47,897 bases of DNA from an uncultured Muribaculaceae bacterium (GCA_964619545.1 CAZUED010000001.1:1-47897); one strand, 5' to 3'; positions 3,270 to 47,897 are shown, counted from the first letter of the stretch. Made by a program: numbers and translations. The notes: generated by a model from the letters alone, not told the origin.

Positions 3270-4490
3270 TTATTCATAACGCAATGCATCGATTGGATTC
3301 AGCTTTGCTGCTTTACGTGCAGGCATAACTCCAGACGCTATACCAACCACGACCGCCACCCCGATGGAAAGAAATACTGACGCAATGCTAAGCGGAACTG
3401 GCATATTCATAATGCCTGGCAGTAATGTCTGGGATAAAATCACACCCAGAAAAAATCCTATCATACTGCCCATAAAGGAAATTACTATCGCTTCGGACAA
3501 GAACTGAATCGTAATATGGCTTTCGCGTGCGCCAATTGCTTTGCGAATTCCAATCTCCCGAGTCCGTTCCGCCACGCTGACCAACATCATATTCATAATA
3601 CCAATAGATCCAACCAACAATGATACGCTGGCTATCGACATTAACAGCATTTTAAGAAACCCTGTAACAGTGTTCATAGTCTCCATAATTTGCTTCATAT
3701 CCGTAATCTGGAAATCATCGCTATTGGCATCTTTTAATTTGTGCCTTTCGCGCAGCAATTGCGTAATTTGTTCGACCGCAATTGCATTATCTGCAGATGC
3801 ATTCAGTTTAACAACTACTTGCGGAACAGAATCTGGAAATTTAGAGCCTATAACTCTTTTCTGCAATGTAGTTATTGGCATAAAAATCATATCGTCGCTG
3901 TTAGTTATGCCCGCACCACCTTTTTCCTTGGTAACACCAATTACTATCAAAGGCACGCCATTCATGCGAATCACCTGTCCCACGGGATCTGGCCCCAAAT
4001 CTAACTCTTTGGCAACGGTTGGTCCAACCACAACATAAGTACTGGCATTACGAACAGCGGACCAATCAAAAAATACCCCTTGATCCATTTCTATATTCTG
4101 AATGTTTTGATAAGTTGGATATGCCCCAATCGCACTGGTATTCCAATTTTTATTTCCAAAAACAATTGTTCCACCAGACATTCTGGTGGGGGTCGTATAT
4201 TCTACATCTGGCAATTGTGCCAATGCCTCGGTATCAGAAATAGTTAAAGTATTCGACCCTGATGCCGTACGAACACCACCGGATTGAGAAGCCCCCGCAC
4301 GAATCATAATTGTATTGGTTCCAAGTGATGCAAATTGACCAGTAATTTGATTTTGCACAGCATCACCAACTGACATCATAATAACCACGGCCATAACACC
4401 AATAATTATGCCCAGAATAGTCAAAAAGCTGCGGATTTTATTTCCGACAATACTCAACCAGCTTTCTTTAAGAATGTCATTAAATGTCAT
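3270..4490 (-). CDS. MacB-type (FtsX-like) ABC transporter permease
   Basis: 406 aa. N-terminal TM IRSFLTILGIIIGVMAVVIMMSVG, a large periplasmic domain, then three C-terminal TMs with the REIGIRKAIGA motif typical of the MacB/LolC/FtsX family. Confidence 0.9.
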   Translation of the reverse strand: MTFNDILKESWLSIVGNKIRSFLTILGIIIGVMAVVIMMSVGDAVQNQITGQFASLGTNTIMIRAGASQSGGVRTASGSNTLTISDTEALAQLPDVEYTTPTRMSGGTIVFGNKNWNTSAIGAYPTYQNIQNIEMDQGVFFDWSAVRNASTYVVVGPTVAKELDLGPDPVGQVIRMNGVPLIVIGVTKEKGGAGITNSDDMIFMPITTLQKRVIGSKFPDSVPQVVVKLNASADNAIAVEQITQLLRERHKLKDANSDDFQITDMKQIMETMNTVTGFLKMLLMSIASVSLLVGSIGIMNMMLVSVAERTREIGIRKAIGARESHITIQFLSEAIVISFMGSMIGFFLGVILSQTLLPGIMNMPVPLSIASVFLSIGVAVVVGIASGVMPARKAAKLNPIDALRYE

Positions 4491-5205
4491 CTTCTCTCTC
4501 TTGCATAAATCTTAAAAAACCAGTTGTATCCTCTCTGCCAAAATCATCCAGCATGTAAGATTTTTCCTGTATTATAGATCGTGATTTATAAAATTTGTTT
4601 TTTGTCTTTAATTGTTGTTCAACTTCTGCCAATAAATCTTGGGCTTGTTTTTTTGTCAGCCTCATCAAACCAACGTTTATTCTAAATTTTTCTTTTAACT
4701 CTCTTCTAGGCTCAAACGATTCATTAAACACATTATCGTTCGGGTAATTTTCTATCCAAAATTTTATATTTTCTGGCGGATAGCCATAAATCGCCCCGCG
4801 AATAAAATGAACTTTATCAACTAATCTCGGGGTCTTTATATATTTAAGGTCTGGATTTTGATTTTTGATTTGTTCGGTTAGATTATTGATTGTTTCAATC
4901 ATATCTTTTTTTATCTGTTCCAGCTCATGACCCAAAGGCTCGGTAATTTCAATTTTTTCACCAGAAATTTTTTCCATTTTTGAAATACAATAATCTGGAT
5001 AGGAAAACATTAACATTTTATTAGATTCTTGCTCTAACGCTTCTTTTGCAATGGGTAATTTATAATTATGAAAAAACTTTGGAACCTTATATCCAGCCGC
5101 AACCAATGCATTATCTAGATCTAACGCCGACGACGACCAAAAAGATGACAGCCCCATAGATTCATAAAATATTTTTAATAATTGCTGCAACGAATTGATT
5201 TTCAT
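4480..5205 (-). CDS. Hypothetical cytoplasmic protein embedded in the efflux operon (no recognisable family)
   Basis: 241-aa ORF. Its ATG shares one nt with the TAA of the upstream ATPase gene (TAATG, 5203-5207). Its last 11 nt overlap the permease start (ATG at 4490). No signal peptide or TM; K/E-rich; visibly lower GC than the flanks. Confidence 0.6.
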   Translation of the reverse strand: MKINSLQQLLKIFYESMGLSSFWSSSALDLDNALVAAGYKVPKFFHNYKLPIAKEALEQESNKMLMFSYPDYCISKMEKISGEKIEITEPLGHELEQIKKDMIETINNLTEQIKNQNPDLKYIKTPRLVDKVHFIRGAIYGYPPENIKFWIENYPNDNVFNESFEPRRELKEKFRINVGLMRLTKKQAQDLLAEVEQQLKTKNKFYKSRSIIQEKSYMLDDFGREDTTGFLRFMQEREDDI

Positions 5206-5924
5206 TACAAATTCCTTTCGCTTTTTGGGACTGGGCCGTCATGAGTAATTTTGCCATCACGAATATGTATCAATCTGTTTGTATGACATGCTATATCAAA
5301 TTCGTGAGTAATCATCACGATAGTTATACCCAATTCTTTATTCAATTTCTTGAACATTTCCAAAATTTCAAATCCCATTTTGCTGTCCAAGTTTCCAGTT
5401 GGTTCATCCGCCAGTATCAACTTTGGTTGTCCGACAAGTGCGCGCGCTATCGCAACTCGCTGACGCATACCACCAGAAAGCTGTGGGGGAAGATAATTTT
5501 CGAACTTTTCCAAACCAACCGATTTCAGCATTTTTCGTGCCATTACCACACGATCATCCGGAGATATACCGCGATACATAAGCGGCATTATAACATTATC
5601 CAAAACACTGCGTTTAGCCAGAAGATTAAAGTTCTGAAATACAAAACCAATATACTCGTTACGCGCTATGGCTAACTCGTCCGCGGTCATGTGCGTTACA
5701 TCATTGCCATAAAGTTTATATATTCCACTTGTTGGTGTATCCAGCGCACCAATTATATTCATACAAGTAGATTTGCCACTGCCAGATGGTCCCATGATTG
5801 ATACCAACTCGCCCGCGCGCACATCAAAACTAATGTTAAATAAAACCTGTTGAGAGCCGCCACCTTCCAAACTGAATGTCTTGTTTATTTTCTCCAGCGA
5901 AATTACTAGTGGCTCTTTAGTCAT
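5205..5924 (-). CDS. ABC transporter ATP-binding protein (MacB/LolD-type NBD)
   Basis: 239 aa. Walker A GPSGSGKST, signature LSGGMRQRVAIARAL, Walker B LILADEPTGNLD, H-loop ITHE. Confidence 0.95.
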   Translation of the reverse strand: MTKEPLVISLEKINKTFSLEGGGSQQVLFNISFDVRAGELVSIMGPSGSGKSTCMNIIGALDTPTSGIYKLYGNDVTHMTADELAIARNEYIGFVFQNFNLLAKRSVLDNVIMPLMYRGISPDDRVVMARKMLKSVGLEKFENYLPPQLSGGMRQRVAIARALVGQPKLILADEPTGNLDSKMGFEILEMFKKLNKELGITIVMITHEFDIACHTNRLIHIRDGKITHDGPVPKSERNL

Positions 5925-5934
5925 TATTTATGCC

Positions 5935-7167
5935 TTACATTCCTGGACCGCCAGGGCCACCACGACTGCCGTGATTATTGCCGCCCATCATACCGCCTGT
6001 CGCAGTAGATTTTTGTCCCAGCTTTCCAGTTATAATTTTATCTCCTTTGACGATTTCATCAGAAATAATTTCTGTCTCGGTCGCAGTTACCAAACCCTTC
6101 TTATACTCTATAATTTGTGGTTTCTTTGTCTTTTCACGAATAATCGCCAGATACTGGGTTGGCTTTTTATCTGCAGCAGATTCCACTATTCCATCAAAAT
6201 TGCGCAATACAAATGCCGCATTAGGCACTTTCCATACATCTTTTCTTTCATCTACCATGATAGTTACAAATGCCGTCATCCCAGGCATAAGACGCAAATC
6301 AGAATTATCAACATCAATAACAACGGTGTAAACCACAACATTGCTTGTCGTCGTTGGGGATAATCTTATTTGACGCACCGCGCCGTCAAAGGTCTGGGTT
6401 GGATATGCATCAACGGTAAAGGTAACTTTTTGTTTTTCCTTTATCACGCCAATGTCAGCCTCGGACACGCTGGTTTCAATCTGCATCTTGGACAAGTCCT
6501 CAGCGATTTCGAATAAATCTGGGGCTTGGAAAGATGCGGCTATTGTTTGGCCTTTATCGACTTTGCGCGAAATTATTGTTCCATCAACTGGTGATACAAT
6601 CTTGGTATATCCCAGATTTGTTTTTGCTCTTTCATATTGAGATTTTGCACGTAAAACGGATTGCTGGGATGTTTTATATTTTGTTTCGGCTTGCTCTAGT
6701 TCTGCACGCGCAATATACCCTTCGGCAAAAAGGGATTTATTTCTTTCGTATTCTGAATTATCAAATTTCAGTTGGGCCTGGGCCGAATCAAGAGCAGCCT
6801 TGGATTCATCGGCCGTTGCCTGTAAAACGCTGGGATCTATTGTTAATAAAACATCACCTTTTTTAACCTTGTCATTATAGTCAACCATAATGTTTTCAAT
6901 GTTTCCACTGACCTGACTGCCAACTTTAATTGTATTTACTGGTTTTATTTCACCGGTTGCGGTAACGACCTGCTTCAAGTTTCCACGTGTAATTTCAATA
7001 GTGGCAAACTGGCTTTCAGTCGATTTAGTTTCACCAAAAATCAATGGTAAAATTATTACCACACACAAAGCGCTTACTATCCACCATTTGTGCTTTACCA
7101 TATAATTAAAAATCCTTTTCCAACGACTGGTTGATGCTATTTCATCCATGTTCTGTGCCATATTCAT
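5935..7167 (-). CDS. Efflux periplasmic adaptor, HlyD/MacA family
   Basis: 410 aa. N-terminal TM, lipoyl-like VSGNIENIMVDYNDKVKKGDVLLTIDP, coiled-coil hairpin, beta-barrel region (TKIVSPVDGTIISRKVDKGQ). Unusual Gly-rich C-terminal tail GGMMGGNNHGSRGGPGGPGM. Confidence 0.9.
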   Translation of the reverse strand: MNMAQNMDEIASTSRWKRIFNYMVKHKWWIVSALCVVIILPLIFGETKSTESQFATIEITRGNLKQVVTATGEIKPVNTIKVGSQVSGNIENIMVDYNDKVKKGDVLLTIDPSVLQATADESKAALDSAQAQLKFDNSEYERNKSLFAEGYIARAELEQAETKYKTSQQSVLRAKSQYERAKTNLGYTKIVSPVDGTIISRKVDKGQTIAASFQAPDLFEIAEDLSKMQIETSVSEADIGVIKEKQKVTFTVDAYPTQTFDGAVRQIRLSPTTTSNVVVYTVVIDVDNSDLRLMPGMTAFVTIMVDERKDVWKVPNAAFVLRNFDGIVESAADKKPTQYLAIIREKTKKPQIIEYKKGLVTATETEIISDEIVKGDKIITGKLGQKSTATGGMMGGNNHGSRGGPGGPGM

Positions 7168-8540
7168 TTAATTTCTCCATACATATTTTCGGGGTTTGGC
7201 GCGGACGCGGTATCATCATCCAAATTTTCTTTTAACTCCCCGGACGCCAGCGCCAGTGCAGCCCGCTGGACATAAAGGTCATATCTGGCAGAAATGTTTT
7301 GCATCTTTGCGCTAGCCAACTCTGCTTGTTGTGTTTGCCAATCCAGCATTGTGGCGCGACCAACTTTATACATCCCGGCCGTTACGCGTTCACTTTCTGT
7401 TGCAGATTTCAGCAAAGAATCTGTCTGTTCCAAAACCTTTATAGCTGTTTTATAATTTTGATATGCAGTCCAAATGTCTTGGGCGACCAGATCTTCTTTG
7501 GCACGTTGTTGTTCTTTGGCGCGCTCGTAATTTGCCTGGCTGGCCCGCAAATTATAAACATTTGCAAAGCCTGCGAAAATCGGCATTGAAGCACGAATAC
7601 CTATGCTGCCACCAACCTTGTCATTTGGATTTCCGCTAACCGAATCATAGGTGTTCTGAAAATTATATGACATCTGACCGGTTGCAGAAATTGATGGTAA
7701 ATTTTTCAAAAATTCTGAATTGCGTCGATACCATGCTGCGTTGGTAGATTCTCCCGCGGAAAGCAAATCGGGACGTTGCTTTTTGGCTTTCTCTATCAGC
7801 TGGGTAATAGTTTCAGATTCTGCGGTACTGCCGAAATTTGATGGCATATCAGTAATTTTCAGATTTTGGTTTTGTGGAAAAGATAACAAGTATAAAATTT
7901 TACCCTTGGTAATTTCACGATTGCCCTGGGCGCGTTTTAATTCCAGCTCTCGCGCGGCCAGACTTGTTTCGGCCTTTAAAACATCTGCCTTGGCCACGGC
8001 ACCAGCCTTGAATTTCTTGTCCGCCGTATCTTTGGCGCCCTTTGCAACCTTGACTAAATCTTCTGCCGCAACGACGCCCGCGTCCGCGCTTAGCATTCCA
8101 TAGTAAGCTGCAACAACATCATAAACATAGTTCTGGACTGCAGTGCTGTAATCAAAGCCAGTTGCACGCCATACTGCTGCAAGTTGATTTAAATCAGAAA
8201 GTCGCTTACCAAAGTCAAAAATCAGCCAACTGGCCGATAAAGATGCGCCCGATTGTATGTCTCCCCATTCCTTGTTCCTGTATGATTTTGATCCGGAAAA
8301 ACCCGCATCTATGGATGGCAAATATGGCGCATACCCCGCATTTTTTCCAAAACGCGCAGATTCAGCAGATAAATACGCGGCTGCGGTCTGCGGATTTCGA
8401 CACAAACCCAACTCTACGACTTGCTGCAAAGTTAAAGTTTTATCTGGGACCGAACTGCGCGAAGCGCAGTTTTCATCCGCCGCCTGTGCCGAACAGGTCA
8501 GAAAAAACAGACTGGTTATTGGTAAAATCATTCTTTTCAT
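7164..8540 (-). CDS. TolC-family outer membrane efflux protein
   Basis: ORF 7164..8570. I prefer the ATG at 8540, which gives the signal peptide MKRMILPITSLFFLTCSAQA. Two repeated alpha/beta TolC-like halves. ATGA overlap with the adaptor gene at 7164-7167. Confidence 0.88.
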   Translation of the reverse strand: MKRMILPITSLFFLTCSAQAADENCASRSSVPDKTLTLQQVVELGLCRNPQTAAAYLSAESARFGKNAGYAPYLPSIDAGFSGSKSYRNKEWGDIQSGASLSASWLIFDFGKRLSDLNQLAAVWRATGFDYSTAVQNYVYDVVAAYYGMLSADAGVVAAEDLVKVAKGAKDTADKKFKAGAVAKADVLKAETSLAARELELKRAQGNREITKGKILYLLSFPQNQNLKITDMPSNFGSTAESETITQLIEKAKKQRPDLLSAGESTNAAWYRRNSEFLKNLPSISATGQMSYNFQNTYDSVSGNPNDKVGGSIGIRASMPIFAGFANVYNLRASQANYERAKEQQRAKEDLVAQDIWTAYQNYKTAIKVLEQTDSLLKSATESERVTAGMYKVGRATMLDWQTQQAELASAKMQNISARYDLYVQRAALALASGELKENLDDDTASAPNPENMYGEIK

Positions 8541-8619
8541 AAGACAAATTATATCATAATTTTCTTGCAATTACACGATTCGGTGTATAAAGTTAACTTG
8601 TTCTTAAATAAATTTTTAG

Positions 8620-33530: not shown

Positions 33531-34606
33531 TTATTAAACAAAAAGTGGCAGATGTCGCCCTGTTGCATTACATAGTCGCGACCTACCAGTCTCATTTTTC
33601 CAGCCTCTTTTGCCGCAACTTCACCGCCAAATTTTAACCAATCCTCTGGCGCAATTATTTCTGCGCGGATAAAGCCTTTCTCGAAATCCGTGTGAATTTT
33701 ACCTGCTGCCTGTGGCGCGGTCATACCAACATTTATTGTCCAAGCATGTGCTTCTTTCGGTCCAACCGTATAAAAAGTTTGTAGACCCAAAGTTTCATAT
33801 CCTGTTTTTATAACTTGATCCAATCCAGATTCTTTTAATCCAAAATCATCCAAAAACATTTTTCTTTCTGTGATGTCTGCAATCTGGGCAATTTCCATTT
33901 CTATTTTTGATGAAATTACCAAAACTTTGGATTCTTTGCTGTATTTGTTTTTTACAGAATCTGAAAATTTATTTCCATTTGCAGCGGCCACTTCGTCTAC
34001 ATTACAAACATAAATTACTGGTTTTGCGGTCAATAATTGAAATTCTGGAATCCAATACTCACTGCGGCGCGCAGGAATTCCAGCCTCTAAATCTTTTTTG
34101 ATTTTTTCCGCAGCATCTAATTGCTTTATCGCTTCTTTATCCAGACCGCGGGCTTTCTTTGTTAAATTTGCAATTTGCTTTTCCAGACTTTCCAGATCAG
34201 CCAACATCAGCTCGGTTTCAATAGTTGCAATGTCGTCCAATGGGTCAATTTTTCCATTCACATGGACTATATCATCGTTTTCAAAACAACGAACAACGTG
34301 GATTATCGCATCAACCGCCTGAATGTGTCCCAAAAATTTATTCCCCAGCCCTTCACCACTGCTGGCACCTTTGACAAGTCCAGCTATATCAACTACTTCA
34401 AGTTGTGTAGGTATTATTTTTTGAGACTTTGCCGATTCTGCCAATTTTTCCAACATTTCATCTGGCACAATAACTTTGCCAGTATTAGGTTCAATCGTGC
34501 AAAAAGGGTAATTTTGCGCCGCAGCGGCCTGGGTCGCAGTCAACGCATTAAAAAGCGTGGATTTTCCCACGTTCGGCAGCCCAATAATTCCACAATTGAA
34601 TCCCAT
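33527..34606 (-). CDS. ychF: Ribosome-binding ATPase YchF
   Basis: I prefer the ATG at 34606 (MGFNCGIIGLPNVGKSTLFNALT). C-terminal TGS-like domain ...HTDFEKGFIRAEI.... Its stop overlaps the dnaG stop by 4 nt (convergent). Confidence 0.94.
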   Translation of the reverse strand: MGFNCGIIGLPNVGKSTLFNALTATQAAAAQNYPFCTIEPNTGKVIVPDEMLEKLAESAKSQKIIPTQLEVVDIAGLVKGASSGEGLGNKFLGHIQAVDAIIHVVRCFENDDIVHVNGKIDPLDDIATIETELMLADLESLEKQIANLTKKARGLDKEAIKQLDAAEKIKKDLEAGIPARRSEYWIPEFQLLTAKPVIYVCNVDEVAAANGNKFSDSVKNKYSKESKVLVISSKIEMEIAQIADITERKMFLDDFGLKESGLDQVIKTGYETLGLQTFYTVGPKEAHAWTINVGMTAPQAAGKIHTDFEKGFIRAEIIAPEDWLKFGGEVAAKEAGKMRLVGRDYVMQQGDICHFLFNN

Positions 34607-34633
34607 CTTAAAATCCTTTATAGTGCAGATAAT

Positions 34634-35311
34634 ATGAACTACTTGTGGCAAGAATTCAACATAAAAACCTTTCCCGCAGAAACTATTGTTTTTCGTGACG
34701 GGATTTATCAACCCGAATTATCAACTTTGCCAAATAGCCTTAAAATTGAAAAAAAATATGATTTGCCAGTTCATATTATTTATATTGGCGATATTTTTGG
34801 TAAAAAAGATATAACTTTTGAGATTTCTGCCGAAAATCAACCGGTTTTCCTTAGTGTTAAAATTACAAATAAAAAACCGGCCTTTTTGGACATTTTTATC
34901 AAAAACACCGGTAAAAATTCTGATTTTACTGGTAAGTTTTTATTTCAGAATTTTTCTGAGTTGGAAATTAACGAAAAAGCCGGTTATTTCGCAGAAAACA
35001 CAGGTATTTTTCTTGAAAATCGTATTATTGCCCATCCTAAAACAAAAACTAAACTTTGTGGAATAGCCACAATTTCAAAAGAAAGTCCTTTATGTAAATC
35101 TGATTTGAGTTTTGCAGCCTTGGCTGCTTCAGATGCACAAGTAGAATTTAAACCAGAACAATGTATTACTATCACCCCAAAGGTCGCCAGCCACTCTGCT
35201 TTTATTTGGAAGGGTACTGATCAACAAATCCAATACTTACGCTCCGCGGGTCTTTCTGGTGATGAAATTAAAAAAGTTTTAGAGGAAGCCTTTACAAATG
35301 GTTTTGTATAG
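34634..35311 (+). CDS. SufD-like (SufB/SufD beta-helix family) protein, short and divergent
   Basis: In-frame ATG at 34634 inside ORF 34175..35311; the upstream part is antisense to ychF. The C-terminus ...VEFKPEQCITITPKVASHSAFIWKGTDQQIQYLRSAGLSGDEIKKVLEEAF resembles the SufD/SufB C-terminal signature (PxLxI...xxxHxAxxGxxdxxqlFYLxSRGisxxeAxxll). Confidence 0.55.
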   Translation: MNYLWQEFNIKTFPAETIVFRDGIYQPELSTLPNSLKIEKKYDLPVHIIYIGDIFGKKDITFEISAENQPVFLSVKITNKKPAFLDIFIKNTGKNSDFTGKFLFQNFSELEINEKAGYFAENTGIFLENRIIAHPKTKTKLCGIATISKESPLCKSDLSFAALAASDAQVEFKPEQCITITPKVASHSAFIWKGTDQQIQYLRSAGLSGDEIKKVLEEAFTNGFV

Positions 35312-35350: not shown

Positions 35351-35482
35351 ATGAAATTTTTAAGCTCCTTAAAAGGATGGAAAAAACGCGGCAATATAAA
35401 ACAAATTCGCCGTGGTAAACAGATTATATTGATTGATCCTGATAAACCAAAATTTAAAGCTAAACAAGGCTTTAAAAGATAA
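35351..35482 (+). CDS. rpmJ: 50S ribosomal protein L36
   Basis: 43-aa ORF below the ORF-track cutoff. MKFLSSLKGWKKRGNIKQIRRGKQIILIDPDKPKFKAKQGFKR matches the non-zinc L36 form (MKVxSSLKSxKxR...RRGKxxVIxKxNPRFKARQG). RBS AAAGGTGA. Confidence 0.88.
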   Translation: MKFLSSLKGWKKRGNIKQIRRGKQIILIDPDKPKFKAKQGFKR

Positions 35483-35507
35483 AAATATAATTTATTCATA
35501 TTTTAAT

Positions 35508-35535
35508 AATTCCTGTTTTTACAGGAATTTTTTTT
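35508..35535 (+). terminator. Rho-independent terminator after rpmJ
   Basis: AATTCCTG-TTTTTA-CAGGAATT (35508-35529) followed by T6. Confidence 0.8.
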
Positions 35536-35600
35536 AACATTTACATTTCAAACAAAAATATAATTTATATTTATTATTTCTTTTGTTAGTCATGTTTATA

Positions 35601-35795
35601 TTGTTGAAAATAATTTTTGTTTATTTATAAACAGTTTTTCAACAAAAAAATGTTAGATTTTAAGGTAAAAATTTAATTTTGTTGAAAATGTAGAAAAATA
35701 ATAAACTTATAAAAAATATGGTATTTTTAAGTAATTTTAACAAAATATAAATAAATTATTTTATGCTTGTTGAAAAGTATAAAATTTTGTTAAAA
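35601..35795. repeat. Repeated TTGTTGAAAA motif in the AT-rich region upstream of virB3
   Basis: Exact copies at 35601-35610, 35679-35688 and 35767-35776. An inverted copy (TTTTCAACAA) at 35636-35645. A degenerate copy TTGTTAAAA at 35787-35795. Copies 1 and 2 form a 45-bp imperfect palindrome. Confidence 0.7.
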
Positions 35796-35812
35796 TCAAG
35801 ATAGAGAGTAGA

Positions 35813-36112
35813 ATGAAACAGCAAGTCTTAAAATCCTTGGCTAATCCGGCGCGCATATTTTATGTGCCGTATAACCTTGCAATACTTAATTTTGTAGTTC
35901 AATTTATTGTTTTTATGGTTATTTTTATAATTGGAATAACAACTTCGCCCAGTTATGAAATGCCTATAGATCCATTATATTTTTTACTATCGGTTGTAAT
36001 TGTTCATTTTATTCTAGCATTCTATTCAAAAAAAGAACCGCAATTAATGCAAATTATTTTAGCAAAATTAAGGTTGTTTGGAAAATTTATTCCAAAAATT
36101 CTAAGAGTGTAA
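35813..36112 (+). CDS. virB3: Type IV secretion system protein VirB3
   Basis: 99 aa. N-terminal LKSLANPARIFYVPYNLAILNF followed by two TM segments. Immediately upstream of virB4. Confidence 0.8.
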   Translation: MKQQVLKSLANPARIFYVPYNLAILNFVVQFIVFMVIFIIGITTSPSYEMPIDPLYFLLSVVIVHFILAFYSKKEPQLMQIILAKLRLFGKFIPKILRV

Positions 36113-36117
36113 AAAAA

Positions 36118-38532
36118 GTGCAAGATTTTTTTAATTTTTTTGTATCAGATATATCATCACCAACAACATTTGTGATGTTTGGTGCTATTATACTTTTTGT
36201 AATAATTATGTATTTTTATTCAAATGTATTATCAAAAACAATTTTGCCAAAATTTGGATATAGAAAATACTCTGATTATCTGCCTTTTTCATCAATTTAT
36301 TCTGATAATACAACTATTGGTTTGTTAGATGGGTCTATTGTCAGGGCTTATGAAATTGCTGGAATTCAGACATCTATGCATGATGATGAAACCAAGAAGA
36401 AGTTTTTAGAGCTACGAGCTCAATTATTAAATCAAATTAAAGATCCAACAATAACAATTAGATTTTTTATGATTCGTGATGCTGTCCAGCAAAACACTAA
36501 TTATGAATTTGATCAACCTATTTTACAAAAAATTAGCGATAACTGGAACGCCCAAGGATTAAAAATTTTCAAAAATTCATATTATGCTGTAATCAGTATA
36601 GCTGGCGGTGCACATGATAAAATGGCGCAAGTTTCAACTTATTTTGAATCAATTATGGCCGCATACAAACCGGTTTTATTAAAACATAATTCGACCAAGA
36701 ATTTTGCATCTCTTTATGCGCGTATTTTATCGCCATTATCAAAACCTGGTGTTTTTAGAACTGATTCTAATATGTCAAATTTAATAACAACCGATGAGAT
36801 AAGTTTTGGTTTTGACGGAATTATTACAGCTTCACATGGGTCTGATAAAAAGTATATGGCTATGGCGTCGTTTAAAACATCACCAGATTTTATGGATGAA
36901 GAATTTTTTGATTCAATTGGAACAATCCAGACAGAATTAATTTGTATGAGTGCTTTTAACGTTTTGGGATCATCAAAAACAGAAACAATTATTCGTCAAA
37001 AAATGGCCAGCAGCGATTCTAATAAAAACGAAAGTGGTGATGTTGCCACTCAGCAGATTGGTGAAGCATTATACTCGATGGATGAAAATGTAACAGGAAA
37101 TCAAAGCCTGATGGATTATTATCCTCTTTTTGTTCTTTCTGGTGATACAAAAGAAGAGTTGTCAGAACATATAAACGAGTTTAATAAAATTTGTGCAGGA
37201 TTTGGAATTTCACCTGTGGTGGAAAGTTTTGCTGCAAAAGTTTCTTGGTTTGCAATGTTACCCGGATTTGATGTTTTCCCACGTTCATTCAAGTTGCTTT
37301 CTATGACTGCCGCAACAAGTTTTCCATTATCCAGCTCGCCAGTTGGGGTTGAAAATTCTGATTGGGGCCCAGGTCCACTGGTTATATTTCCAACCAGCAG
37401 TGGAACACCATATCAGTTCCAATTTCATGTATCTGAATCTGCAGCGGCGGTTGCGCATACATTAACAATTGGACCAACAGGTGGTGGAAAAACAACATTA
37501 TTTTCTTTCTTGATTTCAATGTCACTGCGACATCAAAAATTAAAAGCATTCTTTTTTGATAGAAATCGCGGGGCAGAAATCTTTACATTGGCAACAGGTG
37601 GAAAATATCTGACCTTTAATGCAAAGTCTAAAGATAAAGTTGCGGCAGGTTTCGAGACCCGACTAAATCCATTCAAGTTGGATGACACAGACGCTAATCG
37701 CGCTTTTCTGCGACGTTGGCTGATGATGATCTCTGGGCAAAACGATCCACAATCTTTGGATGAAATAGCGCGCGCAGTATCGGTAAATTTTGATTATTTA
37801 GATGAAAGTCAAAGAAAGTTGAAAAATTTGTGGGTATCTAATTTTGCATCAGATGGCAAAATGCGTCCGGCGTTAAAACAATGGGTTGATGATTTGCAAT
37901 ATGGCAGTATCTTTAACGAAAATACCGATACATTGGATTTATTCTCACGTCTTACTACATTTGATTTTACTGATGTTTTGGCGGATGAAACTTTGGCGCC
38001 AGCGGTAATTTCTTATATATTACACAGAATAAATACAGCAACCGTGTCTGGTGGAAATCCTGCATTAATTATGATTGATGAAACCGCGCCCATGTTGGAA
38101 AATAAAATGTTCCGCGATAACTTTGTTGTTGGTTTGCAAGAAGGAAGAAAAAACAGACAAGCGTACATGGCGGCATTCCAGCGCGCAAATGTTTTGGATA
38201 AATTGGGCATCGGTGACGTTGTCCGTGGTCAGGCACAAACGATCTTGTTCTTCCGCAATCCTGGTGCTGACACGGCGGATTACGAGCACTGGAAGCTGAA
38301 CCCATTAGAAATGGCATTTATCCAAGGGCGCGCTTATCCTAATCTGAAACGTGCAGTTTTGTTGTCGCGTCCTGTTACTGGCGAGTCCGTAATTTTGAAC
38401 ACAGAATTAGGAGGCCTGGGCAGCTTGCTTCGATTATTCGAGTCAGGTCGTTCATCGGTATTATTAGCAGAGGAATTGTATAAACAATACGGGAATCAGT
38501 TTGTTGAAGAATACTTACGCAAGACCGCATAA
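36118..38532 (+). CDS. virB4: Type IV secretion system ATPase VirB4
   Basis: 804 aa. GTG at 36118 (alternative ATG at 36175). ...DYLPFSSIY...GLLDGSIVRAYEIAGI..., Walker A GPTGGGKTT, Walker B region ALIMIDETAPML. Confidence 0.92.
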   Translation: MQDFFNFFVSDISSPTTFVMFGAIILFVIIMYFYSNVLSKTILPKFGYRKYSDYLPFSSIYSDNTTIGLLDGSIVRAYEIAGIQTSMHDDETKKKFLELRAQLLNQIKDPTITIRFFMIRDAVQQNTNYEFDQPILQKISDNWNAQGLKIFKNSYYAVISIAGGAHDKMAQVSTYFESIMAAYKPVLLKHNSTKNFASLYARILSPLSKPGVFRTDSNMSNLITTDEISFGFDGIITASHGSDKKYMAMASFKTSPDFMDEEFFDSIGTIQTELICMSAFNVLGSSKTETIIRQKMASSDSNKNESGDVATQQIGEALYSMDENVTGNQSLMDYYPLFVLSGDTKEELSEHINEFNKICAGFGISPVVESFAAKVSWFAMLPGFDVFPRSFKLLSMTAATSFPLSSSPVGVENSDWGPGPLVIFPTSSGTPYQFQFHVSESAAAVAHTLTIGPTGGGKTTLFSFLISMSLRHQKLKAFFFDRNRGAEIFTLATGGKYLTFNAKSKDKVAAGFETRLNPFKLDDTDANRAFLRRWLMMISGQNDPQSLDEIARAVSVNFDYLDESQRKLKNLWVSNFASDGKMRPALKQWVDDLQYGSIFNENTDTLDLFSRLTTFDFTDVLADETLAPAVISYILHRINTATVSGGNPALIMIDETAPMLENKMFRDNFVVGLQEGRKNRQAYMAAFQRANVLDKLGIGDVVRGQAQTILFFRNPGADTADYEHWKLNPLEMAFIQGRAYPNLKRAVLLSRPVTGESVILNTELGGLGSLLRLFESGRSSVLLAEELYKQYGNQFVEEYLRKTA

Positions 38533-38539
38533 AATTATT

Positions 38540-39154
38540 ATGAAAAAAATTATAATAACTCTTTCAATATTTTATTTTTTCACTTTTTCACTTTATGCGT
38601 CGGATTGTTTGCAGTATAAAGCCTCGCCATCGGTAAAAATAACAACTCCAGAATGGAGCAAAAAGGTCGCACAACCAGATGTTCCTATGGACGCGATGCA
38701 TGGAACGGTTGTCGCCAGTTTTGATGAAGAGTATGATTTGCAAGTTGCCGCTCAACCAGTGTCAGATGGCTATTGTGTAATTTTGAACAAGTTAGATGCG
38801 ACGCTGGGTTATACGGGTTTTTTGGTGAATATAGACCGGTCTCATACGCCAGGTTCATGTGGATACACAATGACTTTGGAACATGAAGAAGAGCATATTT
38901 ATGCTCACCTAGAAGCGTTCAAAAATGAATTTGAAAACATGAAAAAATCAACACAAGCAGCAGCAGATAGCATCATGCCGATTTTTGTAAAAAGTCTGGA
39001 CGGAGTCAATGACGCACTGGACAAGATGCAGCAAGAATTACAATCTCACCCGGATATAGTTTTGATGAAGCAAAAGTTGAGCGCCAGTCAAGAAATCTTA
39101 AACAAGAAAGTGGACGAGCGCGACGACGGAGTCCGAATAAATTTGTGTAAATAA
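38540..39154 (+). CDS. Secreted hypothetical protein with HExxH motif (possibly DUF922-like metallopeptidase), in the virB5 position
   Basis: ATG at 38540, 8 nt after the virB4 stop. Signal peptide MKKIIITLSIFYFFTFSLYA. HEEEH at nt 38882-38896. C-terminal about 80 aa predicted helical (KNEFENMKKSTQAAADS...QQELQSH...). Confidence 0.6.
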   Translation: MKKIIITLSIFYFFTFSLYASDCLQYKASPSVKITTPEWSKKVAQPDVPMDAMHGTVVASFDEEYDLQVAAQPVSDGYCVILNKLDATLGYTGFLVNIDRSHTPGSCGYTMTLEHEEEHIYAHLEAFKNEFENMKKSTQAAADSIMPIFVKSLDGVNDALDKMQQELQSHPDIVLMKQKLSASQEILNKKVDERDDGVRINLCK

Positions 39155-39181
39155 AAAAAACTGCCGCAACCGGCAGTTTTT
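39153..39181. terminator. Bidirectional terminator between the HExxH gene and the SIMPL gene
   Basis: CTGCCG-CAAC-CGGCAG (39161-39176) flanked by A8 and T5. The genes are convergent. Confidence 0.8.
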
Positions 39182-39935
39182 ATTTAAGGTAAAAACTTAT
39201 CGTCGACACGACACGAATTTTTTTATAAATCGATTGTTTTTCATCATAGTTAAATCCAGCAACAGGGTCGCGCGGCTCTATACTGAAAACCCCTTGAGTC
39301 GCATTTTGTATAGGACCCAGTTTTGCCCCAGCATCTTTTGCAAATTGCTGTGCGGCCTGACCTGCGTTTTTTGTAGCCTGTTCAATCATCGATATTTTAA
39401 TGTCGTTCAAGCCATTAAATACATAGACAGGTCCAGTATAATCTTCTTTAATAGTTATTCCTTGGCGAACCAAATCGCCCATTCTTCTAGAAGTATTATC
39501 AACCATATTTACATTATTTGATCGAACCATGACACCAGTTTCAATAACATAGCGACCTTGGTTTTTATCCGACGAAATGTTTTCTTTCAAAGAAATAGGA
39601 TCATAGCCCGCAAAGTTGTCGCGCACCTGAACACGAGTGTTTTGAATTTCGGATTCAGCAAAGCCCGAATCAATCAAGAATTTTTTAATTTTCAAAATGT
39701 CTGAATCAACCGCAGTCTGTAAAGCAGCCAAGTCCCCACCGACTTTGGAAATGTTGATGTTCCAAACTGCCATATCAGCAACGGCGTCTCGCTCGGCCAA
39801 GCCCTTGACCGAAACGATACGTTTATTGCCAGCATTATAAACACCATTTCCGACAAAATATCCGCCCAAAACCAGCCCCAGCGATAAAACTGCTGCCGCC
39901 GGCAGCAAGTACTTTTTTATATTTTCGTCTTTCAT
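39180..39935 (-). CDS. SIMPL domain (BP26/Omp28-like) periplasmic protein
   Basis: 251 aa. N-terminal TM/signal, then ...RIVSVKGLAERDAVADMAVWNINI... and overall size and pattern typical of DUF541/SIMPL. Confidence 0.7.
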   Translation of the reverse strand: MKDENIKKYLLPAAAVLSLGLVLGGYFVGNGVYNAGNKRIVSVKGLAERDAVADMAVWNINISKVGGDLAALQTAVDSDILKIKKFLIDSGFAESEIQNTRVQVRDNFAGYDPISLKENISSDKNQGRYVIETGVMVRSNNVNMVDNTSRRMGDLVRQGITIKEDYTGPVYVFNGLNDIKISMIEQATKNAGQAAQQFAKDAGAKLGPIQNATQGVFSIEPRDPVAGFNYDEKQSIYKKIRVVSTISFYLK

Positions 39936-45095: not shown

Positions 45096-46364
45096 TTGGA
45101 AAAACGGAGGGAGTTTTTGTCGGCAGGGGTTATAACTATTGAGCGCAAAAAATATGCGGTCGGGCTGTTTTGGCAGCCGTTGCCCGCTGGTCAAAATACC
45201 CGTGATTTTGCCAGGCAACTTTCCAAGCAGATTACAGGAAGTGTAAAATTTTATGCCGAGTTCAGATCAATGGTTGGTGTTGGTACTCGCGCGCTGGGTC
45301 ATCGCCGAGGTATGAAGATCGCCGCTATTGAGATTATAAATGCTTTTGCAGAGTATAATTCATTTTTGGCCGAATTTTTTACCCCGCAGGGTTTTTGGAT
45401 TATAGCAGTCAGAAACAACATCATAATTTTTGACCAATTATTTGGTGCCGAGGCCGAAGCAAAGCGGGAATTTATAAATTTATCAGCATTGCCAGACTGG
45501 GGTATAATTATTGCGCCCGGAAACTGGAATGTTCCAAGATCGGTCGAGAAATCTTTGCGCGACATTATTTCGGGAAATTCTAAAGTAGCATTGACACCAA
45601 TAGGCGGCACATTGGGAAATATTTTTTCAATAGCGGTTTTTGCCGCTATTGCTTCTGTTTTTTGGTATTTTTTCCAAGACCCAATAATCAAAGTTTTTGC
45701 CCCTCGTGCACAACAAGCACAAATAAATCCCCAGGTTATAGAAGAGTACAAACGGCAATTGGAAATCAAAAAAATCCAACAAGAAGACGTTATTCAACCG
45801 ATACGCGCTGATATGCCTTATGATAATCTGCCAGATGCGCTACTTTATGCTGAAAAATGCTGGAGATCCATAGCCTATGTTATGCAGCCGATTACAGGTT
45901 GGGTTCAGCAAAGTGCAGAATGTATAGATAATACTGCCAGCGCCAGGTTTGTTCGCACTTATGGAACGCTTGCAGGTTTGCATGAATCTGCATACTCTTT
46001 GATGGGTGATGTGTTTATTGTTGAAAATACTGATTCTGATGCTGTGATTAGTGTGCCTTTTGCTCCTTTACCACCAGCTGAGAACAATACACCAAAAAAT
46101 CTGACCGAGGACATTGTTTTTTCAATAAGCAGTTTATTTCAGACAATTGGTGAATCTGCAAATGTCCGATCTGGTATGGAAACAAGCGGAGAGGGAGAAG
46201 CGGCCGTAACATCAAATGTGGTTATAGTAAGTGCCGCATCGAAGTTAAAGCCGGATGAATTTATCAAAATTTTTGATGGAATTTCACCGCTTTATTTATC
46301 GTCTGTCAAATGGGATGCGCGATCGCGCACTTGGAACTATGAGGTTAAAATCTATGCTAAATAA
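45096..46364 (+). CDS. PilO2-like type IVb pilus biogenesis protein (bitopic inner-membrane protein)
   Basis: 422-aa ORF. A likelier start is the TTG at 45117, after GGAGGG. N-terminal ...VITIERKKYAVGLFWQPL... resembles the PilO/PilO2 (PAP_PilO) N-terminus as I recall it. Single central TM IFSIAVFAAIASVFWYFF. Followed by PilP-like and ATPase genes. Confidence 0.55.
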   Translation: MEKRREFLSAGVITIERKKYAVGLFWQPLPAGQNTRDFARQLSKQITGSVKFYAEFRSMVGVGTRALGHRRGMKIAAIEIINAFAEYNSFLAEFFTPQGFWIIAVRNNIIIFDQLFGAEAEAKREFINLSALPDWGIIIAPGNWNVPRSVEKSLRDIISGNSKVALTPIGGTLGNIFSIAVFAAIASVFWYFFQDPIIKVFAPRAQQAQINPQVIEEYKRQLEIKKIQQEDVIQPIRADMPYDNLPDALLYAEKCWRSIAYVMQPITGWVQQSAECIDNTASARFVRTYGTLAGLHESAYSLMGDVFIVENTDSDAVISVPFAPLPPAENNTPKNLTEDIVFSISSLFQTIGESANVRSGMETSGEGEAAVTSNVVIVSAASKLKPDEFIKIFDGISPLYLSSVKWDARSRTWNYEVKIYAK

Positions 46365-46989
46365 AAAATATAAAACCCCCATGGCGGCCATGTTTGTTAT
46401 TGCTTTGGCGTTCATGCCATCACTAGCAAGAAGTGCCGAAAATGTAAACGTTGAAGAATACGATCCGGCTGGTTCAATGTTCCAAATGATTACTGATTTG
46501 GAGCAAGAAAAAGTCATCTGGCAGTTGGAAAAAGAAAAAGCACAACTGCAACTGGATATGGACAGAATGGCAGCAGAGCAAATGCGCTTGAAAAACGAAA
46601 TGGACGCAATGCAAGGTTCAGGCAATACCCAGGCCGAGGCATTAGAACTGGAGCGCCAAAGATTAGAAATTGAAAAACAAAAATTAGAAGCGCAAAGAAA
46701 AAGTATTGATGAATCAGTCGTAACACCAACCAGAACTTCTGCGACCAATCGGGTCGAAGTTGAAGAACAATCGCCTATACAAGAAAAATACAGATTGATT
46801 GAAATTGTTGGTGCTGGACGCCAGTTGCTGGCAACGGTCGAGGACAATGCGACAGGTCAGCGCAAAAAGATTTCTGTTGGAAAAGATTTGGACGGCTATC
46901 GTATTGATTCTGTATCGTTAGATGAGGGTGTTATTATGTCAAAAGATGGACAGATTGCAACACTTGGGATTCATGCCGATCAACAATAG
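46354..46989 (+). CDS. PilP-like type IVb pilus biogenesis protein
   Basis: ATG at 46354 inside ORF 46255..46989, overlapping the previous gene by 11 nt. Signal peptide MAAMFVIALAFMPSLARSA, coiled coil, C-terminal beta domain YRLIEIVGAGRQLLATVEDNATGQRKKISVGKDLDGYRIDSVSLDEGVIM typical of PilP. Confidence 0.55.
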   Translation: MLNKKYKTPMAAMFVIALAFMPSLARSAENVNVEEYDPAGSMFQMITDLEQEKVIWQLEKEKAQLQLDMDRMAAEQMRLKNEMDAMQGSGNTQAEALELERQRLEIEKQKLEAQRKSIDESVVTPTRTSATNRVEVEEQSPIQEKYRLIEIVGAGRQLLATVEDNATGQRKKISVGKDLDGYRIDSVSLDEGVIMSKDGQIATLGIHADQQ

Positions 46990-47000
46990 TTTAATTAAAT

Positions 47001-47897
47001 ATGTCTGTACGAAAAAATCTTGAAAAAGAACAATTATCTGAAAGCAGTGTTACATTATCTGTTCCGGGTGATGTCGCGGCATTAACCCAGAAAGAAATAA
47101 TAGAACATCTTTTTTATAAGGGGAATACTCTGCTGACAGCAACCGGTGGTGCACTGGAGACCGCGCGCGATACCCAAAATCTTTTAGCATATTTTTCAGG
47201 TGGTGAAATTGTTATTTCGCGCACACATCGATATGATGGCCGGGTAATTTCTTTCTTGGAATTGCTGAAAAAAGAGAAGCGCATAGTTAAAGAGCCTTTC
47301 TATAGCGATCTGGGTTTGATTTCTGTAATTTACCGATTTAATGAGACCAAAACTGCTGGTTCGCCAACACGTGCACCGATGTATTATGATAATCAGATGC
47401 AAAAGGACTTTGTGGATATAATTGCGCGTGCTGCATCCATGAAAGTTTCTGACATTCATATAGAAGTTGCGGACCAGACAACAATTTATTTCCGTCTAGA
47501 TGGCAGCATGCAGTCTGTCATGGAATATAATTCTGGATGGGGCGAATCATTTATTCGTGCAGCTTTTGCATCTGCAGATCAATCAAGTTCTAACTATGCT
47601 CAGAACGAGTATCAAAGCGCACAAAAAGATGGGCGCACACCTTTACGCGGAACTCGTGATCTTTACCTGCCTGCTGGGATTATGGGTGTTAGAATGCAGT
47701 TTAATCCGATTGCATTCGGAAGTCGATATGTTGTTATGCGATTGCTTTATGATAATCCAACCGAAACAATAAAGACGGAACAAGAGTTTGGTGAATATGA
47801 ACGAAATCTGTTGATGCGTATGCGTTCTTTTCCGACGGGCCTTGTTGTGGTTGCGGGTCCAACTAGCAGCGGTAAATCAACAACTTTGTTTCAGAAT
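47001..47897 (+). CDS. GspE/PilB-family secretion ATPase (PilQ-like type IVb pilus assembly ATPase), 3' end beyond the window
   Basis: Absent from the ORF track because it is open-ended. My translation from the ATG at 47001 gives ...ASMKVSDIHIEVADQTTIYFRLDGSM...VRMQFNPIAFGSRYVVMRLL...GLVVVAGPTSSGKSTTLFQN (Walker A). Confidence 0.8.
   Translation, partial: MSVRKNLEKEQLSESSVTLSVPGDVAALTQKEIIEHLFYKGNTLLTATGGALETARDTQNLLAYFSGGEIVISRTHRYDGRVISFLELLKKEKRIVKEPFYSDLGLISVIYRFNETKTAGSPTRAPMYYDNQMQKDFVDIIARAASMKVSDIHIEVADQTTIYFRLDGSMQSVMEYNSGWGESFIRAAFASADQSSSNYAQNEYQSAQKDGRTPLRGTRDLYLPAGIMGVRMQFNPIAFGSRYVVMRLLYDNPTETIKTEQEFGEYERNLLMRMRSFPTGLVVVAGPTSSGKSTTLFQN

Follow-up and report, generated by a model that had tools for sequence, protein, structure and literature searches.

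A predicted exported HExxH protein is encoded as the third cistron of the virB3-virB4 operon in the alphaproteobacterial order Rs-D84

The 47,897-nucleotide sequence CAZUED010000001.1 (GCA_964619545.1), analysed here over its whole length and referred to as the window, is recorded as DNA of an uncultured Muribaculaceae bacterium. It carries two type IV secretion system (T4SS) genes, virB3 and virB4, and immediately behind them a third gene, here called X, whose product has a predicted signal peptide, four conserved cysteines and an HExxH..D signature. The organism belongs to the alphaproteobacterial order Rs-D84 (Candidatus Enterousia and relatives), and X stands directly behind virB4 in all the relatives of this order that were examined. 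Our leading but tentative interpretation is that X is an exported, disulfide-stabilised, metal-dependent hydrolase that has been fixed as the third cistron of virB3-virB4 and probably acts as a T4SS accessory enzyme.

The three genes run head to tail (Table 1). An earlier note, made from the window sequence alone, had described a 5-nucleotide (nt) gap between virB3 and virB4 followed by a 204-residue gene, and the reading frames are as it claimed; the gap between virB4 and X, which it gave as 8 nt, is 7 nt in the sequence. The linkage is kept in relatives, a point the note had raised. X lies directly 3' of virB4, on the same strand, in 86 of 86 loci anchored on X, and virB3 is found upstream wherever the contig extends far enough. 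Look-ups anchored on VirB4 instead of X found, in both clades sampled, a gene of 202-205 codons that starts 2-7 nt behind virB4 and encodes the full signature. Between virB4 and X the median gap is 4 nt, and 68 of the 69 scored loci fall between -8 and 65 nt, with the junction usually 9 nt or less or overlapping. A single locus (L010, 9584-10001) has virB4 and X apart, by 416 nt, and the insert holds a gene for a 125-residue 23S-rRNA-intervening-sequence protein (a four-helix bundle).

The flanks of the trio vary widely. Immediately after X, 75 loci show genes of 34 different families, and immediately before virB3, 73 loci show genes of 13. None of these rearrangements has broken up the trio, which is still intact where the identity of X has dropped to 40% across order-level divergence. 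VirB3 is 41-91% identical across more than 80 related loci. VirB4 matches 1351 database proteins at E ≤ 1e-30 (among 8000 candidates scored), and the 120 matches listed are Rs-D84 sequences only.

A conserved promoter precedes virB3. In 73 of 80 loci a TTGTTG-N17/18-TATAAT-like pair occurs no more than 100 nt from the virB3 start, with a perfect TATAAT at 17 nt in 67 of the 73, and the 150 nt before X score no better as a promoter than random stretches inside virB4. Because the virB3 promoter is conserved, none is seen at X and the virB4-X junction is tight, co-transcription of virB3, virB4 and X as one unit, which the earlier note had supposed, is well supported by the sequence, and translational coupling of X to virB4 is probable. 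The unit is closed by a GC-rich hairpin with T/A runs on both sides, common to X and to a convergent SIMPL/DUF541 gene; it is the bidirectional terminator that the note had described. An Rfam match to STnc40 at this position stays below threshold (32.6 bits, gathering score 45) and probably reflects no more than the terminator hairpin.

The spacer upstream of virB3 holds four exact copies of TTGTTGAAAA, at 35601 (+), 35636 (-), 35679 (+) and 35767 (+), as well as TTGTTAAAA variants. The resulting TTGTTGAAA(A) array at 35601-35796 packs four exact copies into 176 nt, and only one other copy exists in the window. The TTGTTGAAA motif lies 5' of virB3 in 79 of 80 related loci, in many Enterousia loci as tandem copies at a spacing of about 10 nt, and the proximal copy provides the -35 element of the conserved TTGTTG-N17-TATAAT promoter. 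The 3' half of the motif (TTGAAA) may be reminiscent of the Agrobacterium vir box, TNCAATTGAAAY. Across approximately 2.5 Mb of related sequence, clusters of at least three copies are found upstream of virB3 only, and none of the 74 loci examined upstream of virD4 carries the array. It was consequently rejected as a marker of a wider T4SS regulon.

The signature of X is conserved far more widely than its overall sequence. A database search gave 75 homologues of X, all without a Pfam domain, and HMMER, run exhaustively over 1.84 billion representative proteins, yielded 199 relatives at E ≤ 0.001. An alignment of 28 close homologues (A1) has C23, C79, C107, C203, H115, E116, H119, D99 and D192 invariant. 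In a second alignment (A2), which takes in 84 of the 199 relatives down to about 20% identity, only seven columns are invariant (G55, C79, C107, H115, E116, H119 and D192), with C23, P147 and C203 conserved at 90% or more. All 84 members have HExxH, 83 of them have four Cys at equivalent positions, and most have a signal-peptide-like N terminus. Among full-length members of the family, HExxH is present in 198 of 198 and the full signature C..C..C-x7-HExxH..[IVLF]D..C in 193; the latter is complete in 83 of 83 distinct Rs-D84 copies. The HEEEH of X lies where the earlier note had placed it, and conservation among homologues, on which its proposal depended, indicates that HExxH in this family is no chance motif. 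A third zinc ligand, which the note had raised as a question, has a candidate in Asp192.

X is predicted to be a substrate of signal peptidase I and not a lipoprotein, because the residue preceding the first Cys is D, E or N; there is no lipobox, and a lipoprotein reading was discarded. In the exported protein the four cysteines are likely to form two disulfides, for which the pairing C79-C107 and C23-C203 may be proposed.

An AlphaFold2 (AF2) model of X has a mean predicted local distance difference test score (pLDDT) of 90.2 and a predicted template modelling score (pTM) of 0.79. It contains strands at residues 31-35 and 40-44, a long hairpin (56-74/77-97) and a short strand (148-150), together with an N-terminal hydrophobic helix (2-19) of low pLDDT, a 38-residue helix (107-144) that carries HExxH close to its beginning, and helices at 153-168 and 171-194. 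This is the beta-rich N-terminal half and helical C-terminal half that the earlier note had read from the sequence. The invariant H115, E116 and H119 are all placed by the model on helix 107-144. A model of a distant member, P0187 (pLDDT 90.8), has the same plan of a sheet followed by a 38-residue HExxH helix. P0187 also has an extra helix (56-67) before the sheet, within a segment of about 20 residues that is missing from the Rs-D84 subfamily. The order of elements in these models is compatible with a zincin fold, and Foldseek gave no solved zincin.

Neither Pfam nor NCBIfam gives a credible match for X. The earlier note had pointed to DUF922 (PF06037), and this connection could not be upheld for X itself. 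Weak DUF922 matches appear in 9 of 84 distant relatives at E ≤ 0.1 (best E 8e-7), and five of the 84 have weak matches to eCIS_core/DUF4157. Both kinds of match align on the HExxH helix, and both families are predicted to be zincin-like. In members scanned individually, the DUF922 stretch (profile positions ~76-151) covers or adjoins HExxH and scores 13-18.5 bits; the gathering threshold of 27 bits is reached by none of the 16. Membership of X in DUF922 was therefore rejected, X being without a match and its individually scanned relatives under the cut-off. We know of no demonstrated activity or structure for DUF922, nor of any link between DUF922 and T4SSs. Its members are small exported alphaproteobacterial proteins with HExxH in every one, and X, at about 200 residues with a conserved HExxH, is alike in these respects. 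DUF922 has been predicted to be zincin-like (PMC3650047), and a Brucella member has been detected in outer-membrane vesicles (PMC11788153). Judged from these profile matches, the X family is undescribed and resembles DUF922 remotely, and the two may have a zincin-like metal site in common.

Another point of comparison is provided by the aspzincins (M35 and related families), which combine HExxH with GTxDxxYG and have their Asp about 10 residues after the second His. X likewise has HExxH and an Asp as putative third ligand, and most members of its family read ..[IV]D.xxxY.. around that Asp. In X, however, the Asp comes 73 residues after the second His and in a different motif, and there is no fold match.

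Several steps would connect these features to a function. His115, Glu116 and His119, on one long helix, could form a zincin-like metal site with Asp192. The activity of X would then most likely be that of a zinc-dependent hydrolase, probably a peptidase, at work on the cell surface or in the periplasm. In Rs-D84 its gene has become the third cistron of an operon that starts at the TTGTTG-N17/18-TATAAT promoter behind the TTGTTGAAA array and ends at the hairpin, and X would be translated directly after virB4. As a T4SS accessory, X might remodel the envelope or process a T4SS subunit, in the manner of VirB1 or of a pilin-maturation protease. VirB1-type hydrolases are the analogy proposed, as exported hydrolases that are encoded in T4SS operons and aid assembly through the wall. 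VirB1 is, however, a lytic transglycosylase and not an HExxH protein, and X matches no peptidoglycan-hydrolase family in Pfam or NCBIfam. In a bolder version, X would be a dedicated accessory metallohydrolase of a minimal, scattered T4SS. Its fold would have no representative in the PDB, it would take over VirB1- or VirB5-type functions such as opening of the wall or maturation of a subunit, and it would be co-regulated with virB3-virB4 through TTGTTGAAA as a lineage-wide operator array; this we consider doubtful.

The slot after virB4 invites comparison with VirB5, and the earlier note had suggested that X might be a cryptic VirB5 analogue. The plasmid-borne T4SSs with the nearest VirB4 proteins in the plasmid collection (29-34% identity) are those of MOBQ-type conjugative elements from Microvirga, Erythrobacter and Paracaedimonas. 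In all three, the gene after virB4 encodes a 251-273-residue protein with a hydrophobic N terminus, and the Erythrobacter gene matches PF07996 (VirB5/TrbJ) at E 6.8e-7. X has no PF07996 match at E ≤ 1. An hhalign comparison of A1 with an alignment of the three plasmid VirB5-like genes (A3) returns a probability of 0.12% over 20 aligned columns, and neither TraC/VirB5 nor any other T4SS pilus protein is among the Foldseek matches of the X and P0187 models in the PDB. X shares with VirB5/TraC/TrbJ its position directly after virB4, its size, its Sec signal and a partly helical build. It differs in having no sequence, profile or fold similarity to them, and its N-terminal half is beta, unlike the elongated helical bundle of TraC from pKM101. 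To our knowledge, VirB5 proteins have neither the conserved catalytic-type motif nor the four Cys that X carries. Because hhalign against the three VirB5-like genes gives 0.1%, and with the PF07996 and Foldseek negatives alongside, these comparisons rule X out as a VirB5 homologue.

Relatives of X occur in 161 species-level genomes of the GTDB collection. The metagenome-assembled genomes (MAGs) that carry them are named 'Alphaproteobacteria bacterium', 'Candidatus Enterousia' or 'uncultured Rickettsiales' and come from termite, ruminant, horse and human guts. Several records (L007-L009, L031 and L033), including the complete 716,531-bp chromosome OZ246409.1, are titled 'uncultured Muribaculaceae bacterium' or 'Bacteroides fragilis'; on an alphaproteobacterial locus such titles probably reflect contaminated bins or errors of taxonomic labelling. 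Enterousia is placed in the GTDB order Rs-D84, whose members are widespread in human, ruminant and termite guts and have genomes mostly below 1 Mb with most biosynthetic pathways missing. A dependence on partner cells has been proposed for them; the study that describes them mentions no secretion systems or interaction mechanism (PMC12306168).

The VirB4 ATPase of the window has intact nucleotide-binding motifs, with Walker A (GPTGGGKT) at residue 452 and Walker B (LIMIDE) at residue 650. Its identity across the order is 63-95%, similar to that of YchF (75-89%) and above that of DnaG (53-82%). A VirD4 coupling protein of 749 residues (L044, 16248-18497), with T4SS-DNA_transf, TraG-D_C and TrwB domains, is encoded elsewhere in Rs-D84 genomes, and its gene is 60-88% identical over 80 metagenome loci (L096-L175). 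One of these loci is on contig Ga0209800_10000040, whose 355,004 bp match the length of the longest contig on record for the X homologue P0015; this agreement suggests a single contig with both virD4 and X. Because virB4 and virD4 are conserved like housekeeping genes and the Walker motifs are intact, some T4SS function appears, on this evidence from sequence, to be maintained in Rs-D84 genomes.

The T4SS genes of these genomes are scattered. The 36 open reading frames (ORFs) of the window that were scanned (35 of them against Pfam) gave no match to a further T4SS family, in keeping with the earlier note's statement that no further vir genes are nearby. The lone virD4 adjoins rsmE, and virB8-B11 were not found within 10 kb of it. 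Two lipoprotein genes come after virD4 in about 35 loci; one is LpoB-like, and the other, of about 420 codons, has no Pfam match. As hidden parts of a T4SS they were set aside. When VirB2-B11 and VirD4 were searched by tblastn with three alphaproteobacterial plasmid T4SS references in about 2.5 Mb around the trio and virD4, only virD4 and a type IV pilus-type ATPase were found, the latter picked up by the VirB11 query in 14 loci. VirB2, B6 and B8-B11 were not found in this sequence, which amounts to about 5% of each genome and in which divergent genes could be missed.

The scatter is of the kind that the earlier note had compared with the Rickettsiales rvh system, in which virB3-virB4 are followed by virB6 paralogues. 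The window differs in that virB4 is followed by X and a terminator, and Rs-D84 virD4 stands alone, not in a virB8-D4 islet. Both have a reduced alphaproteobacterial genome, scattered vir genes and no recognisable virB5, and the window VirB3 weakly matches PRK13899 in NCBIfam. In the rvh system, small islets of vir genes are dispersed over the chromosome, an 'archipelago' that likewise has no virB5 (PMC2653234).

Several points weigh against X as a hydrolase in the service of a T4SS. The main weakness is that the case for a T4SS role is indirect and that the wider family of X has no link to T4SSs. The remaining parts of the T4SS that X would serve were not found in the roughly 5% of each genome searched. 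Reduced genomes, moreover, often join unrelated genes in operons. On the side of activity, Foldseek comparison of the X and P0187 models with 350,542 PDB chains gave best E values of 1.2 and 0.78, and that of the X model with BFVD a best E of 0.19, with no metalloprotease or T4SS protein near the top of the lists. Sequence-profile searches of the PDB with A1 and A2 returned coiled-coil noise only, and X and its close relatives have no DUF922 match at E ≤ 1. Finally, five distant homologues on metagenomic contigs, about 23-29% identical to X by best local alignment, are in no case near virB4. The neighbour of three of the five is an erpA-like Fe-S gene, and in two of those three an exonuclease-family gene adjoins as well. 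A fourth stands behind a dnaJ-like gene between gyrA and gyrB, and the fifth is surrounded by unrelated genes, among them one of the IMPDH family and one for a class II aminoacyl-tRNA synthetase. Because the distant members examined lie in such ordinary contexts without virB4, the ancestral function of the X family does not appear to be T4SS-specific.

Since distant members sit in ordinary chromosomal settings, attachment to virB3-virB4 reads as a capture specific to Rs-D84 and not a property of the family, and the Rs-D84 copies form a distinct, shortened subfamily without the helix of about 20 residues found in other members. The named sources of the wider family are Rhodospirillales MAGs, where the annotation is 'hypothetical protein'. 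Against 72,556 plasmids, tblastn with X gave no real match, and tblastn with the distant member P0191 gave three, on large replicons of Microvirga, Methylorubrum extorquens AM1 and Rhizobium leguminosarum. The Microvirga sp. VF16 plasmid pMVF16-3 encodes a 210-residue member of the X family (718557-719189; L180, 35558-36190) in the cargo region of a conjugative element, 35 kb from the VirB4 that is closest to the window VirB4 in the plasmid collection. The element also holds a MobA/MobL relaxase, VirB2-B11, VirD4, SSB, Rad52 and Dcm. This proximity to a T4SS may be coincidence. Around the AM1 and R. leguminosarum copies there is no such T4SS within 25-50 kb (flanks of about 100 kb and 50 kb), and the idea of an old association between X and T4SSs was dropped on that account.

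These observations give some force to the view that X is a general periplasmic housekeeping enzyme, the Rs-D84 orthologue of the erpA-linked members, that after genome compaction only shares the virB3-virB4 promoter and has no functional tie to type IV secretion. The five distant homologues in housekeeping neighbourhoods and the AM1 and R. leguminosarum flanks speak for it, as do the strongly reduced genomes of Rs-D84, mixed operons being common in such genomes. Against it, the trio has held together through dozens of rearrangements at both ends while X diverged to 40% identity, the virB4-X junction has stayed tight or overlapping, and the lack of the helix in the Rs-D84 subfamily suggests specialisation. 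We regard this view as possible, though not probable. The earlier note had held that its idea would suffer if X proved to belong to a housekeeping periplasmic family with no synteny to virB4 in other genomes; the distant contigs do show the lack of synteny, but the Rs-D84 loci are all linked, and Pfam and NCBIfam assign X to no housekeeping family. Alternatively, X could be a non-catalytic periplasmic protein, structural or metal-binding, in which HExxH..D holds a metal for stability or sensing only. That confident models resemble no solved zincin is in line with this, as is the absence from the Rs-D84 subfamily of the helix (56-67 of P0187) that could match the zincin 'backing helix'. The Glu of HExxH, which serves as the general base in zincins and is not required for metal binding alone, is nevertheless as invariant as both His residues, and a non-catalytic role is accordingly unlikely in our estimation.

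Pertussis toxin is exported by Sec and then released by the Ptl system, and X might by the same route be an effector or toxin that reaches the periplasm by Sec, is released by the T4SS and has a partner or host cell as the target of its metalloprotease activity. The signal peptide, disulfides, protease-like motif and co-expression with the core ATPase would all fit, and so would the partner dependence proposed for Rs-D84 bacteria (PMC12306168). Yet X has no similarity to known toxin metalloprotease domains in Pfam, NCBIfam or Foldseek searches, and in larger, higher-GC genomes of Alphaproteobacteria its homologues stand in housekeeping contexts. The presence of a virD4 coupling protein also points to cytoplasmic substrates. 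An effector role is hence quite improbable. The least likely of the alternatives is that X serves a divergent T4SS as its minor pilus or adhesin subunit, a VirB5 analogue in function. Position, size, Sec signal and helical C-terminal half would suit such a subunit, and the nearest plasmid T4SSs do have a VirB5-like gene in the same slot. It is opposed not only by the failed profile and fold comparisons but by the invariant residues, which fit a catalytic metal site better than a structural helix bundle, and by the family members that lie far from any T4SS.

Table 1. The virB3-virB4-X unit and its boundaries in the window
Feature	Coordinates	Strand	Details and basis
Terminator-like hairpin 3' of small L36-like ORF; upstream boundary of unit	35508-35529	+	Terminator scan
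AT-rich regulatory spacer	35483-35812	+	330 nt, 14.5% GC
Putative sigma-70-type operon promoter	35767-35796	+	-35 TTGTTG 35767-35772, 18-nt spacer, -10 TAAAAT 35791-35796
virB3, 99 residues	35813-36112	+	Pfam VirB3 28 bits, cut-off 23.9
virB4 ATPase, 804 residues, GTG start	36118-38532	+	Pfam CagE_TrbE_VirB 50.8 bits; TIGR00929 E 1e-111
Gene X, 204 residues, predicted exported, four conserved Cys and HExxH..D signature	38540-39154	+	
Predicted Sec signal peptide of X, residues 1-20	38540-38599	+	MKKIIITLSIFYFFTFSLYA, then SDC; read from sequence and alignments A1 and A2
Four conserved Cys codons of X	38606-39148 (span)	+	C23 38606-38608, C79 38774-38776, C107 38858-38860, C203 39146-39148
HEEEH (His115, Glu116, His119)	38882-38896	+	Near N-terminal end of helix 107-144
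Asp192, candidate third metal ligand	39113-39115	+	Near end of helix 171-194; invariant column in A2
Bidirectional hairpin terminator, closes unit	39156-39181	.	Terminator scan
SIMPL/DUF541 gene, convergent with X	39180-39935	-	

The remainder of the window consists, as far as its ORFs could be identified, of housekeeping genes. These are argS, a MacAB-TolC-type efflux set, nusA, infB, mnmG, ileS, pheST, rplT, mreC, the PBP2 gene, rodA, topA, dnaG, ychF, lpxK and lpxC. Base composition is uneven within the trio: virB3 and the first 900 nt of virB4 (35813-37017) have 28-31% GC, and the rest of virB4, X and the whole window 40-41%. The small ORF upstream of the spacer (35351-35482, 43 residues) resembles the Cys-less (type B) ribosomal protein L36, with a Ribosomal_L36 match over its full length (E 5.5e-4) under the curated cut-off. 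It is kept between a SufBD-like gene and virB3, and in L184 an ORF labelled L36 (weak) lies on the opposite strand. The SufBD-like gene (34550-35311) encodes a protein of about 225-250 residues whose match to SufB/SufD (E 1.8e-4, under the cut-off) is confined to the C-terminal core; the gene adjoins ychF throughout the order, with no other suf genes nearby.

Two further clusters lie at greater distance. The MacB-type ABC efflux set (3270-8570) comprises an FtsX/MacB permease, an ABC ATPase, an HlyD-family adaptor and a TolC-like OEP protein; between the permease and ATPase genes sits a 241-codon gene (4480-5205) without a Pfam match. Some 6 kb beyond X lies a type IV pilus-like cluster (45096-47897), which is cut off by the end of the window. 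Its ORF at 45096-46364 has no Pfam match of its own, and the equivalent stretch of the close relative L007 (6474-11073) has genes for a PAP_PilO-like protein and, after it, a T2SSE ATPase and a T2SSF platform protein.

Neither scattered T4SS genes nor exported HExxH proteins are new as kinds of finding. What is new is threefold: a gene for an HExxH protein is invariably joined to virB3-virB4 in an entire order of uncultured, partner-dependent bacteria, the confident predicted fold of its product has no solved relative, and a cis-regulatory array is present lineage-wide. The conserved virB3, virB4 and virD4 point to a working T4SS-like machine, which makes it a candidate for the partner interaction of Rs-D84, and X is the only non-canonical gene welded to its core ATPase. 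The conserved promoter with its TTGTTGAAA array offers a concrete regulatory element. If X only shares the operon, it would still define an uncharacterised exported HExxH family of Alphaproteobacteria. If it is a T4SS accessory enzyme, it would represent a new class of T4SS component and provide a handle on how these bacteria make contact with their partners.

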